DNA of 64,000 nucleotides from positions 1 through 64,000 of IMG/VR virus record IMGVR_UViG_2869455143_000004; one strand, given 5' to 3'. Origin of the DNA: a virus (taxonomy: Duplodnaviria > Caudoviricetes). The translations under genes and the position numbers were made by a program. Positions 50,298 through 57,496 of the stretch are shown piece after piece. The notes beneath the pieces were generated by a model. The model did no database searches. It was not told where the DNA came from and saw only the letters and a list, made by a program, of their open reading frames with translations. Position 1 is the first letter of the stretch, and every line of letters begins with the position of its first letter.

Positions 50298-50768
50298 AGG
50301 ACGGCTAAGCCTTGCTATTGGGCGTGATACACGTTCACTCTCCACCTGGTAGGGCTTAGTGCCAGGAGTGCTGCTTTCCACTGGTTTAACAGACGTTGCA
50401 TCATTCGGTAGTGGAGCTGGCTCAGACACCTTGCCCGGTACCAAAGCCTCAGACTCAACTGGGGCAGCTTGTCTGTTTTGTTTCTTTGGCTGGTGGTCAG
50501 CCGCAACCATTCCCATCAATGACATAGCCATACTGATAAAGCGCTCAGCGCGTTCGCTTTCCGGCAATGCCATCAGATCCTGACGTTCCATTAGTGCAAC
50601 CAGAGCGCCCAGCCCCATTTTCTCCAGTGCATAACCGTAACGCAGACAATCCAGCATCAGCCGACGTTTAGCGGCGTTACTCTGCAGACCGTTGTATTCA
50701 TTTGCCAGCGCGTCAGTTAAGGGGCTGTACTCAGCCAGCCCGGTAATCTTGATGGTTTGTTTTGTCAT
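50277..50768 (-). CDS. parR: ParR/StbB-like centromere adaptor
   Basis: Coupled downstream of parM; folded N-terminus and low-complexity tail. Confidence 0.6.
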   Translation of the reverse strand: MTKQTIKITGLAEYSPLTDALANEYNGLQSNAAKRRLMLDCLRYGYALEKMGLGALVALMERQDLMALPESERAERFISMAMSLMGMVAADHQPKKQNRQAAPVESEALVPGKVSEPAPLPNDATSVKPVESSTPGTKPYQVESERVSRPIARLSRPSDDSNT

Positions 50769-51847
50769 TAATTCCGCTCGCTAAGTTCAGCCAGTATCTC
50801 GTCACGCACTGGGTCAAGTGCGAAGTAAACGCCGCGTACAATGCTTGTTTCCGGGTATTCAGGAATGAATACCAAATCATGCCAGTCGGCGGTGTAATCA
50901 GGCATGCCATGTAGACGACCACCAATATAGTTTGCACCACCGCCTACCAGCAATAGTGCATCAATATCCAGCATGTTTCTGTGAACCTTGCGAATATCAG
51001 CGCGGATAATCTCAGCCAGTTCACTGGCGGCCTGACTGATAACGCCAGATACATCAATGCGCTTGCTGCGAGCTGCTTCCAGGCGCGAACCAATGAACCC
51101 CTGACGAATTATCGTATCAATGCTCTCGATGTTAAGGCTCTTGGCGTTGATATTTTTCCCGCTGGTGGCCTCAAACTCCTGCAGTAGAGCATAAACGCGC
51201 TCAATCATGCGATGAATACCGTTCTCAGTCGTTCGACGGCTAATAACCTGCAGGTCTTTATCCACCACAGCCATGTCACAGGTGAAGCGCCCTAAATCAA
51301 CGACCAGGATGCTTTCTGCTTCTAACAAATCTGGAAAGTCAGACTGGGCAGAAATCACGGCAGGAACAGCTTCAGGGAATACCTCAACATGTGCGATACG
51401 GGCTGGCTGAATATCGGCGCTGTAATTGCGAACGGGTATCAAAAGGTTGTCGGCTTTAGCCTTGGTACGGACGCGATCAATCTTACCAATGTCAGAGTAG
51501 AACTGGTTCACCGGTAGTGTTTCCGCAAGTATCACGTCAGCACCGTCAAGACCGGCACGAACAAGGGCTTCATTAACTAATACACGATGTGCTGCACTTA
51601 CCTGATAGTCAGGGTCGCAGGTATCAACCAGGTCCGTCCCTTTGTTAACGACAACATAGCTGCGCTCACGACCATCATCGGTGGTTAACCATGAGGATGA
51701 TGTTTCACTGGCTAACGTTTGCTGGCTACCTGAGCGAATCAGGGACGGAGTTACATAAGTCTCCATCTTGCCATCACGTTCAAAGGTCAGGGCCACATTG
51801 CCGGAGCCTGCATCCACTGCAACAAAAACGTAGTTTTTCTTACTCAT
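50768..51847 (-). CDS. parM: ParM/StbA actin-like segregation ATPase
   Basis: VDAGSG, FPEA, VDLGRFTCD, LVGGGA actin-fold motifs. Confidence 0.9.
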   Translation of the reverse strand: MSKKNYVFVAVDAGSGNVALTFERDGKMETYVTPSLIRSGSQQTLASETSSSWLTTDDGRERSYVVVNKGTDLVDTCDPDYQVSAAHRVLVNEALVRAGLDGADVILAETLPVNQFYSDIGKIDRVRTKAKADNLLIPVRNYSADIQPARIAHVEVFPEAVPAVISAQSDFPDLLEAESILVVDLGRFTCDMAVVDKDLQVISRRTTENGIHRMIERVYALLQEFEATSGKNINAKSLNIESIDTIIRQGFIGSRLEAARSKRIDVSGVISQAASELAEIIRADIRKVHRNMLDIDALLLVGGGANYIGGRLHGMPDYTADWHDLVFIPEYPETSIVRGVYFALDPVRDEILAELSERN

Positions 51848-51983: not shown

Positions 51984-52054
51984 TGATCAATAAGCAGGGG
52001 GAAGCCTAAGTGATCAAATAAGTGATCAAAAAAAAGTGATCATTTGCGTGATCA
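51984..52054. other. Candidate pac hexamer cluster
   Basis: Five TGATCA at 51984, 52011, 52023, 52037 and 52049; more TGATC at 52284, 52296, 52436 and 52463. Confidence 0.65.
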
Positions 52055-52057
52055 CTC

Positions 52058-52079
52058 TAAAAACCAGACCGCCTATCCT
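52058..52079 (+). promoter_or_regulatory. Late promoter for pacAB
   Basis: TAAAAACCA-GACCGCC-TATCCT. Confidence 0.65.
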
Positions 52080-52110
52080 CGCGGCAGTGTGGTTTTTGGC
52101 GGTAGGCGTA

Positions 52111-53340
52111 ATGGCAAAGATTGACTGGGATTGGCACAGGGAAAATTATAAAAAACATAAACTTGAGTCAGGCGTGACTTACAAGGAGTATGCCGAATTC
52201 CATTCCTTAAACCCGAATACCGCACGTCGCGAACTGAGCAAAAAGACGGATGAAGAGGGGCTGGCGCCCACGCTGTCGGCGCGTGATCAGGCAGATGATC
52301 TAACCATCAGAAGGAAGGGAAGAAAACTCAAGCACAGCAGTGCCTTAGAGGAAATTACAGGAGAGAGTGAACCCGGCGAAACACGCGCAGGCACGAAAAA
52401 TAAAAAAAATAATTCCAAAGGCACACGCGCCAAAATGATCAAACCAGTGCATGAGGGGGAAGTGATCCCACATGTACCGAAACAACGAGGTAAGGGTAAG
52501 CAATTCGAAACCGGTAATGAGGTGAATGTTGTCGCGAATACCAGAGGGAAGCCCCGCGAGGTTGATCGTGATGCTGCTGTCTCATTGTTGGAAGCTGGCC
52601 TGGAAGAATGCGAGGCGTCCACAGTTAAAACAGCCGTCGAGCATATGCAACTGTTGTCGCGAACCACCGCCAGGGCGGTAGAGCTATTCGAAACAGAAAT
52701 AGCCAACATGAATACCCCACGAGAAAAGGGTGACAAGGAGGGCGATGACGATGCACCGTCCGGGCCACACCCGCTGTTAAAGCTGACAAAACTCCTGATT
52801 GAAGTCGGCTACAGGATGGATGACCACGCTACCCGTATCAGTTCTATCCGTTCCTCACGAGAAAAGCTCAAGATTGACCGTGAAAAGCTGGGCGCAAAAG
52901 CGACCGAGGCACAGGTTATTGCCACCGCCTACCAGCTGCGTGATGAAAACGACTGGGATATAGCAGAAACCGCTGAGTATATCGAGCGTCACGGGGTAAA
53001 ACTGCCGGACTCCATTGCCTTGAGGCTGGCTAAGGAGATCAAGGAAGCAGAACCGCCAGTAAGTGACGCCGGTGCTGTTGATGATGACCAGCTGGAAGAA
53101 GAGGCCCGTAAATATCGCGAAGCGCAGGCCGGTAAAGAAGCCTTCCTGAAAGAGCGCCGGGAAACCGTCGCCAGGATTGTAGACGAGGGCGGGTATGGCG
53201 ATACGAACCATGACGGCATCCGGCGCGAAGGGGAGTTAGACCCGGATGAAGAGGGGTTAGATCTCGATTACGAGGCGACCCGCGAGTTATACGGCGAAGG
53301 CGATGAAATCGCGATAGCGCCCCCGGATGAGGACGAATAA
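52111..53340 (+). CDS. pacA: Terminase small subunit PacA
   Basis: W..H..N...YA....LNPNTARR; V..GGYGD; start reassigned to 52111. Confidence 0.88.
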   Translation: MAKIDWDWHRENYKKHKLESGVTYKEYAEFHSLNPNTARRELSKKTDEEGLAPTLSARDQADDLTIRRKGRKLKHSSALEEITGESEPGETRAGTKNKKNNSKGTRAKMIKPVHEGEVIPHVPKQRGKGKQFETGNEVNVVANTRGKPREVDRDAAVSLLEAGLEECEASTVKTAVEHMQLLSRTTARAVELFETEIANMNTPREKGDKEGDDDAPSGPHPLLKLTKLLIEVGYRMDDHATRISSIRSSREKLKIDREKLGAKATEAQVIATAYQLRDENDWDIAETAEYIERHGVKLPDSIALRLAKEIKEAEPPVSDAGAVDDDQLEEEARKYREAQAGKEAFLKERRETVARIVDEGGYGDTNHDGIRREGELDPDEEGLDLDYEATRELYGEGDEIAIAPPDEDE

Positions 53341-54851
53341 TGGCATCCGGGAAGAAGAAAATAAAATGCGTAACCTCTGATCCGCGCTGGCGTGACATGG
53401 CTATCCGCTATCGTCATGACTGGGGATTAGCGGTCGTTGAATTGTTCGGAATGCAACCGAGCTGGCAGCAGGATGAAATACTGCAGTCGGTTCAGCAGAT
53501 AAAGAGCATGACGACCGTTACATCGGGGCATGGTACCGGTAAGTCATCCCTGACAGCTATGATGCTGATGATTTACATGATTCTGTACCCGGATGCGCGC
53601 GTCGTTATCATCGCGAACAAAATTGCGCAGGTAAAATCTGGCGTCTTCAAGTACGTAAAAACCTTTTGGGCCAACGCCGTAAAACGTCACCCGTGGCTGC
53701 AGAACCACTTTGTTTTAACCGACACCATGTTTTATGAAAGAAGCCGGAAAGGTGTGTGGGAAGTTCTCTGTAAAGGCTATCGCCTGGGTAATGAGGAAGG
53801 GCTGGCAGGGGAGCACTCCAAACACTTACTGATAATTCTGGATGAAGCGTCCGGTATCTCTGATAAGGCTATCGGCATCCTTACCGGCGCGCTGACGGAA
53901 GCTGATAACCGCATGCTCATGCTTTCCCAGCCGACGCGCCCGTCTGGTTACTTCTACGACTCTCATCACAGCCTGGCGAAGACTGAACATAACCCTAAAG
54001 GGATCTGGACGTCGATTGTCCTCAACTCTGAAGAATCACCGTTTGTAACTGACGACTTTATTGTCATGAAGCTGGCGGAATATGGCGGTCGTGACAGCAT
54101 GGAGTACAAAATCAAGGTACTGGGCCAGTTCCCGTCCGTGATTGATGGCTTCCTGTTGGGCCGCGATGCCTGTGAGCGCGCCCAGCGTCGTAAAGTGTAC
54201 CTTGAGAAAAACTGGGGCTGGGTGGCGCTTGCTGACGTCGGGAACGGTCGAGACAAATCCGTCCTGAACATTATGAAGGTAAGCGGCTATCGTGAGAAAC
54301 GTCGGTTCGTTCCGTTCGTTGTGCTTGAAATGCCGGGTACCATGAACCCTACAGAGTTCGGTGACTTTATTGCGAACGAATGTACTCAGGAGCGGTTCCC
54401 CAATATCACTATAGGCGTGGATAGTGACGGCGTAGGCTCAGCTACCGCCGACCAGCTGGAGCGCAGGGGAGTTAACGTCGTCCGTATCCGCTGGGGTAAG
54501 CCTATGTTCGCCAAAACAGATAAGGACCGATTTGTAAGCCAGAGAGCCTATGCCAACATAGCAGCTCGTGACGCCATACAGACAGGCCGGATGAGGCTGG
54601 ATTCGTCGCCTAAAACAGCAGAACAGGCCTCTAAAATACCCTGGAAGATAAACGAGGATGGGCGTGTTGCGATGATGAAAAAGGACTACATGCGGCAGAA
54701 GATGAATATCAAGTCACCTGACCGTTGGGATACGTACTGTTTTTCAACGCTGATATCGTATCGCCCTGCTAATGATGACCTGGGTGGAGACATGGAAGAA
54801 ACCCGCGCAGATGCACTGGCAGAACTGTCGAAATATGATGATGTGATTTAA
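53340..54851 (+). CDS. pacB: Terminase large subunit PacB
   Basis: SGHGTGKS Walker A, IILDEASG Walker B, nuclease DVG and SPDRWD. Confidence 0.95.
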   Translation: MASGKKKIKCVTSDPRWRDMAIRYRHDWGLAVVELFGMQPSWQQDEILQSVQQIKSMTTVTSGHGTGKSSLTAMMLMIYMILYPDARVVIIANKIAQVKSGVFKYVKTFWANAVKRHPWLQNHFVLTDTMFYERSRKGVWEVLCKGYRLGNEEGLAGEHSKHLLIILDEASGISDKAIGILTGALTEADNRMLMLSQPTRPSGYFYDSHHSLAKTEHNPKGIWTSIVLNSEESPFVTDDFIVMKLAEYGGRDSMEYKIKVLGQFPSVIDGFLLGRDACERAQRRKVYLEKNWGWVALADVGNGRDKSVLNIMKVSGYREKRRFVPFVVLEMPGTMNPTEFGDFIANECTQERFPNITIGVDSDGVGSATADQLERRGVNVVRIRWGKPMFAKTDKDRFVSQRAYANIAARDAIQTGRMRLDSSPKTAEQASKIPWKINEDGRVAMMKKDYMRQKMNIKSPDRWDTYCFSTLISYRPANDDLGGDMEETRADALAELSKYDDVI

Positions 54852-54879: not shown

Positions 54880-55914
54880 TCAATCTTTCTTAATCAGAAT
54901 GTTAAAATTCTTACCGCGTCGGCTGCGTGTATCTCCAAACATGGAACGCAGCTCTGAGATAGAAAGAATATTGTTATTATCGGTCGCAAATTTTCGCTCA
55001 AGTAATTTCCGATCCTCTTCTGTAAGCAATTCGAGCTTACGCCTACCCGCCTCTATTGAGCGGTTAGCTTTTTCTATTTCAGCCTCTGTTTTAGCCTTTG
55101 CCAGCTTAGTTTTAGCCCGTCTTTCAAAGTGGGTAATACGGCTTAAAATTGATTGCTCAACGATAGTTTTTTGCGCAGCCTTAGCCTCTGCAATCTCTAT
55201 TTGATCAATGCCGTAAATATCCCCAACCGTAAATATTGAGCATTTCAATGGTTTTATAAGACTATACTTATTGAAATATTCTGTTTTAGGCTCTGTTGAT
55301 ATTTTTATGTCGTCCTTTGTCCATTGCGGGTGATAAATCATGACGCCATGAGTCCCGCAACGTGCGCGCGTACTCTCGTTTTCACCTTTAAAAACAACAT
55401 CTAAGACAGTATCCTGATACCCACTAACACGGTGTCGGAACTTGTGTCCTTCGGGGTATGCTTCAAATGTTTCCATTTCCTCAGTGAGCGCTTTAACGGC
55501 TTCATTTGTATGAGGAAACTTTCTAAGTTTCTTTATTTGCTTTTCATATCTATTAAGCAAATCCTCGCGTGTATGAGTGCATGTTGTTGCAGCATTAAAA
55601 AAACCAATAGCTACGGACACTGGTTCAATTATTAACATTGGAACCGGTGAATATATAGCTGTCGATATGGCTATGCTTTTGTTTTTCTTCATCTCAGTAG
55701 CAAGTTCAGCAAACTTTTTCCACCGAATTTGTAAATCAACAGCTTTATTAAAAATAGCCTCATCGTTTGAAAATGCGATAGGACGAATCTTCTCGTCTTT
55801 GGCATTTCTGCTGTGACAGATGGCGAGTGAATCAACCAGTTGCATCCAGTCTTTTTTGGTCTGCAAAAACAACTTGTACTGCTGCTCAAACATCACGTCA
55901 TTAAACGCTGGCAT
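54880..55914 (-). CDS. c1: C1-like immunity repressor with a longer C-terminus
   Basis: SPVP.L and YPE..KFR.RV.G similarity to P1 C1; convergent with pacB. Confidence 0.75.
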   Translation of the reverse strand: MPAFNDVMFEQQYKLFLQTKKDWMQLVDSLAICHSRNAKDEKIRPIAFSNDEAIFNKAVDLQIRWKKFAELATEMKKNKSIAISTAIYSPVPMLIIEPVSVAIGFFNAATTCTHTREDLLNRYEKQIKKLRKFPHTNEAVKALTEEMETFEAYPEGHKFRHRVSGYQDTVLDVVFKGENESTRARCGTHGVMIYHPQWTKDDIKISTEPKTEYFNKYSLIKPLKCSIFTVGDIYGIDQIEIAEAKAAQKTIVEQSILSRITHFERRAKTKLAKAKTEAEIEKANRSIEAGRRKLELLTEEDRKLLERKFATDNNNILSISELRSMFGDTRSRRGKNFNILIKKD

Positions 55915-56260
55915 TGTGTGATTGTCCTTTTGGTTGTACTAACACGTTCTTACCCACTTGCTACCCACATTGAAAGTAATCAACGAACACGATAAAGCCT
56001 TAGAAAGACAGCGATCTCAATAAAGCCATGCTTCCAGCACCTTATGTGTCACGTCGTCTGGCAGGTGATCACGCAAAATGATCACCAATCTGAGGTAACG
56101 ACGACCAGGTAACACAATGACCGACCTGAATCCCATCGCCCTCATCCTGAGTTAGCTCATTCATGTGGCCTGTCATGGGTACATACTAAAGCAAACCTTT
56201 CCCTTTATATATACTTTTGATTCTAAGCTCACTCACGTTTGAGCCAAAATAGGCAAAAAA

Positions 56261-56294
56261 ATAACTATAGATAATGGGGGTTATATAAAGTTAC
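56261..56294. other. lox/rox-like recombination site
   Basis: ATAACTATAGATA-ATGGGGGT-TATATAAAGTTAC; 13-8-13 geometry, 176 bp upstream of the recombinase. Confidence 0.8.
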
Positions 56295-56470
56295 GTGCTA
56301 TGATCAGTTTAACGGGTTATCTTGGTGATCATTTTAGAGGCCTGTGAAAGATTGGGACCATTGGCGTTGCTGGTGGCCTTATTTTTTACGTAGCACGTCG
56401 TTTCTTAGAAAGTATGTATTTTGCATGAGGCCGTTTCACACGGTTCTCACGTTATCAAGGAGGTCATAAC

Positions 56471-57496
56471 TTGAACTATCCGAATATTATCGACATGAAT
56501 TCGAGTTTTCCCGAGCTTACGGGGATCACTCCAGAGGAAGTTGCACAGAATCTACGCAAATTCATGGCGGATAAAGAGGCATATTCTGAAAATACGTTCA
56601 AAAAACTAACATCGGTTGTCCGGGCGTGGGCTGTGTGGTGCCAGAAAAATCAGATCGCGCCGCTGCCGATTATGCCCGATTGCGCCAGAGCTTATTTTCT
56701 GGAACTACATGAAGCCGGTGTTGCATCCACCAGCATCACCAATCATTTTGCGATGCTTAACATGTTGGCCCGAATTTGTGGGCTTCCCGATCTAAAAAAC
56801 AGTACAGAAGTGCAGCTGGCGATGAAGAAAATTCGCCGCCAGTCCGTTCTTGGCGGAGAGAAAACCGGACAGGCCGTCCCGTTCCGGCTCGCCGACCTGC
56901 AGTTAGCCAGTCATATTTTGTCCCAGTCCGACCGGCTTGCCGATTTGCGAAACCTCGCTTTTCTGTATGTAGCCTATAACTCGCTTCTTCGAATACAGGA
57001 AATCGCCCGAATCCGGGTAAAAGACTTATCCGTTAACGATGAGCGGATAATCATGGACATTTCTCACACAAAAACAGTCGTGACCGCCGCAGGTGTCATC
57101 AAGCATCTGAGTGTTCCAGCCAGTAACATGTTGAAAAAATGGCTAAATACTTCAGAGCTGATCAGCCATCCCGACGCGGTTGTGTTTTGTCGTGTATTTA
57201 AAAATGATCGGGTACAGATATCAGAAACGCCGATGACGACGCCTTCACTGGAAAAAATATTCCAGGATACCTGGCGGCTGCTGGGCAGACCATCGCAAAC
57301 TACCAACAAAGGCAGGTATGAAATGTGGTCTGGACATAGCGCCCGGGTCGGAGCTGCACAAGATATGGCTGAGCGCGGTGTGAGTATGGCGCAGATAATG
57401 CACGAAGGAACATGGTCAAAACCAGAGACAGTAATGCGCTATTTACGACGCCTGAAGAACGAAAACAGCGCCATGAGTGACATCATGGAAAGGTAG
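56471..57496 (+). CDS. cre: Cre/Dre-family tyrosine recombinase
   Basis: RN.AFL.VAYN.L.R..EI.R, HTKT, GHSARVGAA.DMA, GTW.KPET.MRY; 341 aa. Confidence 0.95.
   Translation: MNYPNIIDMNSSFPELTGITPEEVAQNLRKFMADKEAYSENTFKKLTSVVRAWAVWCQKNQIAPLPIMPDCARAYFLELHEAGVASTSITNHFAMLNMLARICGLPDLKNSTEVQLAMKKIRRQSVLGGEKTGQAVPFRLADLQLASHILSQSDRLADLRNLAFLYVAYNSLLRIQEIARIRVKDLSVNDERIIMDISHTKTVVTAAGVIKHLSVPASNMLKKWLNTSELISHPDAVVFCRVFKNDRVQISETPMTTPSLEKIFQDTWRLLGRPSQTTNKGRYEMWSGHSARVGAAQDMAERGVSMAQIMHEGTWSKPETVMRYLRRLKNENSAMSDIMER

Follow-up and report, generated by a model that had tools for sequence, protein, structure and literature searches.

Cre-type recombinases with distinct targets serve as genome-engineering tools, and every new natural pair of enzyme and site is a candidate tool. 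Among the characterized pairs, Dre/rox of phage D6 is the closest to the locus described here. In the D6 record, rox is annotated 151 bp before dre and reads, in the orientation of dre, TAACTTTAAATAAT-TGGC-ATTATTTAAAGTTA; it is symmetric except for the outermost base. Dre and Panto, which are 52% identical, recombine each other's rox and pox sites, that is, Panto cross-reacts with rox (PMC4957104). Reportedly, Dre also acts on sites carrying as many as four half-site mismatches, and among the Cre-type enzymes there are some with high specificity even where the sites resemble one another (PMC10250229). The YR1-YR12 systems of Jelicic et al. 2023 are of the same kind, a Cre homologue with a nearby 8-bp-spaced palindrome, and the palindrome search of that study accepted 1-2 mismatches in arms of 13-15 bp (PMC10250229).

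The locus lies in a 64,000-nucleotide stretch of viral DNA (Duplodnaviria; Caudoviricetes), positions 1 to 64,000 of IMG/VR record IMGVR_UViG_2869455143_000004, referred to here as the window. A gene for a Cre/Dre-type tyrosine site-specific recombinase of 341 aa (window 56471..57496, plus strand) is preceded, at a distance of 176 bp, by a candidate 34-bp site, ATAACTATAGATA-ATGGGGGT-TATATAAAGTTAC (56261-56294). We read the two as a new Cre/Dre-type pair, a putative equivalent of Cre/loxP with a slightly lopsided, rox-like site. The locus as a whole is very probably the Cre/loxP-equivalent module of a Citrobacter P1/D6-like phage-plasmid, and one for which cross-reaction with Dre/rox and Panto/pox is likelier than strict orthogonality. 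The 85,317-bp IMG/VR record has a single copy of the 34-bp site and a single Cre/Dre-type recombinase; a search of the record that allowed 3 mismatches gave no further copy of the site, and no further recombinase was found either.

A 1.3-kb stretch covering the locus is found with 99.8-100% identity in seven complete circular plasmids of Citrobacter freundii and C. portucalensis, 84-95 kb in size, and the 131 bp around the site show no difference among these seven. To the left of the site are the terminase genes pacA and pacB (52036..54851, plus strand), which match phrog_1711 (terminase) and phrog_2 (terminase large subunit); an identical plasmid also has "terminase" annotated there, and pacB of D6 lies at the matching relative place. 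They are followed by a C1-type phage repressor homologue (54880..55914, minus strand), which is divergent from the recombinase gene and marks the left edge of the intergenic region in which the site lies. This protein is 31% identical to the annotated C1 of D6 and matches phrog_1678, while its match to the NCBIfam model phage_rep_C1 is weak (E value of 4e-12) and under the curated cut-off. A Ref-family nuclease gene lies a few kilobases downstream of the recombinase gene. The gene order, pacA-pacB-c1 (minus strand)-site-recombinase, is that of P1 and D6 (pacA-pacB-c1-lox-cre...ref), with pacB, c1, site, and recombinase common to the window and D6. In a preliminary description, the locus had been proposed to hold a natural pair of a Cre/Dre-family recombinase and a lox/rox-like site, arranged as in Cre/loxP, Dre/rox, and Panto/pox, and the proposal is supported.

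The site consists of a left 13-bp arm, ATAACTATAGATA (56261..56273, plus strand), with A at position 7 and G at position 10; an asymmetric 8-bp spacer, ATGGGGGT (56274..56281, plus strand), which is the presumed crossover region; and a right 13-bp arm, TATATAAAGTTAC (56282..56294, plus strand; reverse complement GTAACTTTATATA), with T at positions 7 and 10. Numbered from the outside, the two arms disagree at positions 1, 7, and 10 and agree at the other 10 of 13. By analogy with Cre, cleavage would occur one base inward from either spacer end. With the outermost base left out, the left arm differs from the rox half-site at 2 positions and the right arm at 1. The inner 8 bp of the left arm are the same as those of both arms of a Leclercia site (see below), and the right arm equals the symmetric arms of Serratia and Rouxiella sites, outermost base aside. 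When the orientation of the spacer relative to the gene was compared by eye with loxP and rox, 4/8 or 5/8 bases matched either way.

Inverted repeats of the 13-8-13 form with up to 3 mismatches occur 7 times in the 64-kb window, against about 8 expected in random sequence, and the palindrome alone was therefore rejected as evidence for a site. Because the inverted repeat is at chance level, the significance of the site rests on its likeness to rox. Against the annotated rox of D6, 12/14 positions match in each arm (24/28 in total), together with 2/4 positions in the center. A rox-arm score of 24/28 occurs once in the window, where the next best score is 18, and the maximum over 20 shuffles was 20. 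Furthermore, no other 13-8-13 repeat is present in the 700 bp upstream of the recombinase gene, even when 4 mismatches are allowed. The preliminary description thus had the site sequence, the 10/13 agreement between the arms, and the 24/28 match to rox right, and the rox with a GCCA center that it gave is the TGGC site read from the other strand. Four results identify the site: the unique likeness to rox, the position shared with loxP and rox, the sites present in relatives, and the conservation of the arms.

The recombinase gene starts with a TTG codon, 7 nucleotides after a Shine-Dalgarno sequence, AAGGAGG (56457..56463, plus strand); both are conserved in the 90%-identical relative from Citrobacter sp. 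NCU1, and the start and stop of the gene agree with the RefSeq annotation of an identical C. freundii plasmid. In a phmmer search of the PDB, the protein aligned with Cre chains over both domains (E value of 3e-80; query residues 3-340 to Cre residues 3-340), and all chains passing an E value of 0.001 were Cre or Cre derived (Tre). The catalytic domain matches PF00589 (phage integrase; E value of 2e-19). Identity is 50-51% to Dre and 43% to Cre (tblastn and MAFFT) and 57% to a Panto-like enzyme of Pantoea. In a MAFFT alignment with Cre, Dre, and 10 relatives, R174, K201, H289, R292, W315, and Y324 align with R173, K201, H289, R292, W315, and Y324 of Cre, so that the R-K-H-R-W-Y set noted earlier is complete. 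Residues P258 and K262 stand at Cre positions 259 and 263, where Dre and Panto likewise have Pro and Lys. The enzyme has K44, K45, N91, and Q265 at Cre positions 43, 44, 90, and 266, which we take to be DNA facing in the light of Cre engineering work; Dre has R, D, K, and S there. The nearest nonidentical relatives are unnamed plasmid or viral database genes with 90%, 72%, and 67% identity.

Three other assignments of the enzyme or pair were considered and rejected. (i) A Xer-type resolvase does not fit, as the NCBIfam equivalog models gave 32 bits for XerC against a cut-off of 335 and 19 bits for XerD against a cut-off of 330. (ii) An integrase acting on attP and attB does not fit either, as all near-identical copies are on circular plasmids or viral contigs and none is in a chromosome. 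(iii) Dre/rox itself is ruled out by the protein identity of 50-51%, by arms matching at 24/28 positions, and by a center matching at 2/4; the near identity to a described pair that would have spoken against novelty is thus not seen with Dre/rox.

Homologues on plasmids number roughly 1,000. For comparison, 13 other lineages were gathered from phage, plasmid, GTDB genome, and IMG/VR collections. One strong 13-8-13 repeat is present 117-352 bp upstream of the recombinase gene in 11 of the 13. The annotated lox of P1 spans the origin of its record and fell outside the scan; with it counted, 12 other lineages have a lox-type site. The exception is Cronobacter phage JK004 (enzyme 79% identical to Cre), where a scan of the upstream 900 bp gave no 13-8-13 repeat. 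Written as arm-spacer-arm, the sites include those of D6 (rox; ATAACTTTAAATA-ATTGGCAT-TATTTAAAGTTAG), Serratia sp. JSRIV002 (ATAACTTTATATA-ATGGGAGT-TATATAAAGTTAT), Rouxiella (CTAACTTTATATA-ATGGGACT-TATATAAAGTTAG), Serratia marcescens (GTAACTTTATATA-ATGGGACT-TATATAAAGTTAG), Escherichia coli pLAO8 (CTAACTTTAGATA-ATGGGGAT-TATTTAAAGTTAT), Pantoea sp. PSNIH1 (GAAACTTTAAATA-ATACCCAT-TATATAAAGTTTG), Pantoea agglomerans (CTGACTTCGTATA-ATTGTTCT-TATACGAAGTCAT), Leclercia (ATTACTATAGATA-ATAGGCAT-TATCTATACCTAT; L004 1242-1275), and a viral contig, L018 (TTAGGTTTAGATA-ATAGGCAT-TATCTAAAGTTAT; L018 1321-1354). The G-rich spacer pointed out previously is indeed present in the window site; it is nothing special, as G-rich spacers are also seen in Serratia (ATGGGAGT and ATGGGACT), Rouxiella (ATGGGACT), and E. 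coli pLAO8 (ATGGGGAT), and it is a family trait rather than a peculiarity of the window element.

Site and protein co-vary among these lineages. Enzymes with Arg at Cre position 259 (Cre and the P. agglomerans enzyme) go with half-sites reading C8-G9-T10, and enzymes with Pro there, including that of the window, go with half-sites reading T8-A9-N10. Mutational work by Karimova et al. indicates that residues 43, 259, and 263 face the co-varying half-site bases (PMC4957104). The co-variation lends independent support to the upstream repeats as the cognate targets. In a maximum-likelihood tree, the enzymes of the window, NCU1, Leclercia, and L018 form a clade (support of 98/98) that includes neither the Dre group nor the enzyme of Pantoea sp. 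PSNIH1; this is the outcome of the phylogeny against the Dre and Panto types proposed for this locus.

Compared with Dre/rox, the window pair has a site at a similar place (176 bp from the gene, versus 151 bp in D6) and a common half-site core, TAACT-T-A-ATA, and the two enzymes agree in the catalytic hexad and in the Pro/Lys pair at Cre positions 259 and 263. However, Dre belongs to a separate, well-supported clade at only 50-51% identity, and the window site is asymmetric at positions 7 and 10 in addition to the outermost base. With Cre/loxP, the window pair has in common full-length protein homology, the 13-8-13 layout, synteny, and the presumed roles in cyclization and dimer resolution. 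The outer ATAACT and inner ATA of loxP are the same as in the left arm of the window site, whereas positions 7 to 10 of the half-site read TCGT in loxP and ATAG and TTAT in the two window arms. Cre has R259 where the window enzyme has Pro, and the gap between site and cre in P1 is about 420 bp, compared with 176 bp, without a cra-like open reading frame, in the window. The Panto-like enzyme of Pantoea sp. PSNIH1, encoded on plasmid pPSP-26e, is the closest one outside the clade, although it belongs to a different clade; its site is likewise asymmetric at position 10, and its outer half-site bases are GAAAC instead of ATAAC.

Thus, none of the characterized enzymes compared (Dre, Cre, and the Panto-like enzyme) appears to be close to that of the window. 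No earlier description of a Citrobacter Cre-type pair was found in the literature, with the approximately 500 candidates of Jelicic et al. 2023 outside the comparison. Given the limit of 1-2 mismatches in their search, a site with three asymmetric positions was probably missed there (PMC10250229).

The pair adds to the family a clade about 50% identical to Dre, and its practical value hangs on specificity, for which the evidence leans toward overlap with Dre/rox and Panto/pox. Cross-reaction is the likelier outcome because the half-sites are one or two bases from rox and the enzyme resembles Dre and Panto at Cre positions 259 and 263. Orthogonality to both Cre and Dre had been suggested in the preliminary description. 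Independence from Dre is, from these sequence features, probably not to be expected, but orthogonality to Cre is plausible because R259 of Cre and bases C8 and G9 of loxP are both missing. A stronger version of the suggestion is a genuine pair with full orthogonality to Dre, Panto, and Cre alike, in which residues specific to the clade redirect recognition to half-sites of the A7/G10 type. The clade does have K, K, N, and Q at Cre positions 43, 44, 90, and 266, unlike Dre or Panto, the Leclercia site has A7 and G10 in both arms, and highly specific Cre-type enzymes with similar sites exist (PMC10250229). We nevertheless regard full orthogonality as unlikely. The right arm, of the Serratia/Rouxiella type, has a single base different from rox; the enzyme has P258 and K262, in agreement with Dre and Panto; Dre tolerates half-site mismatches, up to four of them (PMC10250229); and Dre and Panto, at an identity of 52%, use each other's sites (PMC4957104).

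The asymmetry of the arms, described initially as unusual, is so in relation to the characterized sites but not within the clade. Three asymmetric positions are present in 4/4 clade members, at differing places, while 9 sites outside the clade have 0-2. The asymmetry is therefore a trait of the clade and not an oddity of a single site. The orthologue in Citrobacter sp. NCU1 (L013, also L017) is 90% identical to the window enzyme at the amino acid level, with a dS of 0.97 and a dN/dS of 0.06. The left arm, ATAACTATAGATA, is the same in the seven Citrobacter plasmids and in NCU1. In total, 33/34 bases of the site are identical between the window and NCU1, including 26/26 arm positions, and the sole change is in the spacer (ATGGGAGT in NCU1). 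This identity exceeds that of third codon positions (63%; P of about 3e-6) and that of the rest of the intergenic alignment (75%; P of about 8e-4). Conservation of the site at a dS of about 1 indicates that the asymmetric arms are held by selection, to which regulatory overlap may contribute. The asymmetry at positions 1, 7, and 10 would then be kept by selection and not be a product of decay, and the enzymes of the clade appear to tolerate or use nonidentical half-sites.

The distribution of arm types suggests how such a site could have come about. Among the relatives, half-sites that combine the rox-like T7 with A10 or T10 are widespread; L018 has G10 in both arms, Leclercia has A7 and G10 in both, and the window site has A7/G10 in one arm only. 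As a tentative extension, which we hold with low confidence, the clade may natively recombine heterologous half-sites with one enzyme, and the window site may be a selection-maintained intermediate in an arm-by-arm co-evolution of recombinase and target. One arm may already be of the A7/G10 type that is fixed in both Leclercia arms, with the other still of the ancestral rox/Serratia type. If this is true, the enzyme would be a natural Cre-type recombinase of dual specificity and a useful start for designer recombinases directed at asymmetric genomic targets. The four related enzymes with asymmetric targets form a small natural series on how specificity can change without loss of function. The series bears on how a homotetrameric recombinase and a palindromic site evolve, and in the lineage of the window element the asymmetry is unchanged at near-saturated synonymous divergence.

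A different origin of the asymmetry, to which we give little credence, is a hybrid site formed by recombinase exchange between the lox-type sites of co-resident phage-plasmids, with a left arm of the Leclercia type and a right arm of the Serratia/rox type. The identity of the inner 8 bp of the left arm with the Leclercia arms, and of the right arm with the Serratia/Rouxiella arms, is what such an exchange predicts. Likewise, TAGG replaces TAAC in the right arm of the Leclercia site but in the left arm of the L018 site, around the common spacer ATAGGCAT, and arm swapping would give this pattern. However, the c1 flank and the recombinase flank rank the relatives alike (NCU1, L018, Leclercia, Pantoea, D6, and Serratia); no mosaic junction is visible at the site, and the same ranking from both flanks gives the hybrid origin no support. 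In addition, the simple prediction is contradicted by the recombinase itself, which lies next to the rox-like right arm and yet resembles that of Leclercia. A simpler account of the asymmetry is that it arose step by step under an enzyme that tolerates such changes.

We find it hardly credible that the site is a chance palindrome or a relic in decay and that the recombinase acts elsewhere or not at all. Inverted repeats this good do occur at chance frequency, and three asymmetries are more than in validated Cre-type sites (published pipelines accepted 1-2). However, nothing else in the window is as much like rox, the site shares its syntenic position with loxP and rox, 26/26 arm positions are kept at a dS of about 1, a dN/dS of 0.06 implies strong purifying selection on the recombinase, and there is no other candidate within 700 bp upstream.

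On the model of Cre, four monomers of the recombinase would bind both arms of two 34-bp sites and synapse them as a tetramer. Strand exchange would take place within the 8-bp spacer through a phosphotyrosine intermediate at Tyr324, presumably without accessory factors, and the site would owe its direction to the asymmetry of the spacer. Like its P1 counterpart, the system may circularize the terminally redundant linear phage DNA after infection and resolve plasmid dimers before partition. Circularization of incoming phage DNA together with resolution of plasmid dimers is the most likely function of the pair in this element.

Several features around the site look regulatory. A hairpin followed by a T-run is present between the site and the recombinase gene (window 56345-56388; L013 1372-1422), with fold z-scores of -4.2 in the window and -4.7 in NCU1 and with differing stem sequences; it looks like a terminator or attenuator that would shield the recombinase gene from transcription crossing the site. 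Directly after the right arm is a TATGATC block (56299-56305), followed 22 bp on by GTGATCATTTT (56326-56336), and both blocks are nearly conserved in 4/4 clade members. The GATC is invariant in the second block and present in the first block in 3/4 members (L018 has TATTATC). The first block resembles a -10 box with an overlapping Dam site, and it recalls the regulatory region of P1 cre, which also has Dam sites. A further block, ACGTAGC...TTTCTTAGAA (56388-56411), is conserved across the clade and is probably the recombinase promoter, because Leclercia and L018 read TTCACG-15-TAGAAT just before the ribosome-binding site. The motif TTTCTAAG occurs 6 times in the window, compared with 1.8 expected, and two of these copies are in the gap between c1 and the recombinase gene; the excess makes an operator role also possible. 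A scan for the sigma-70 consensus over 55880-56520 called no promoter on the plus strand. The only match was TTGGCT-16-TAGAAT on the minus strand (56247-56220), just left of the site and facing the c1 homologue, and promoter-like matches in the region are no more frequent than in shuffles. Since the conserved block holds likely promoter or operator elements, part of the conservation of the site could be due to regulatory overlap.

Two further features concern packaging and maintenance of the element. In P1, lox is packaged early. The 5' end of the pacA-like gene has a cluster of five TGATCA hexamers (window 51984-52055), all of which include a Dam GATC. The cluster resembles the hexamer arrays of the P1 pac site and is about 4.2 kb upstream of the lox-type site, a distance that, by analogy, fits the early packaging of lox in P1. 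Just upstream of pacA, the annotation of the identical plasmid has a partition gene of the ParM/StbA family (window about 50768-51847, minus strand); the element therefore seems to partition by an actin-type system and not by the ParAB system of P1.
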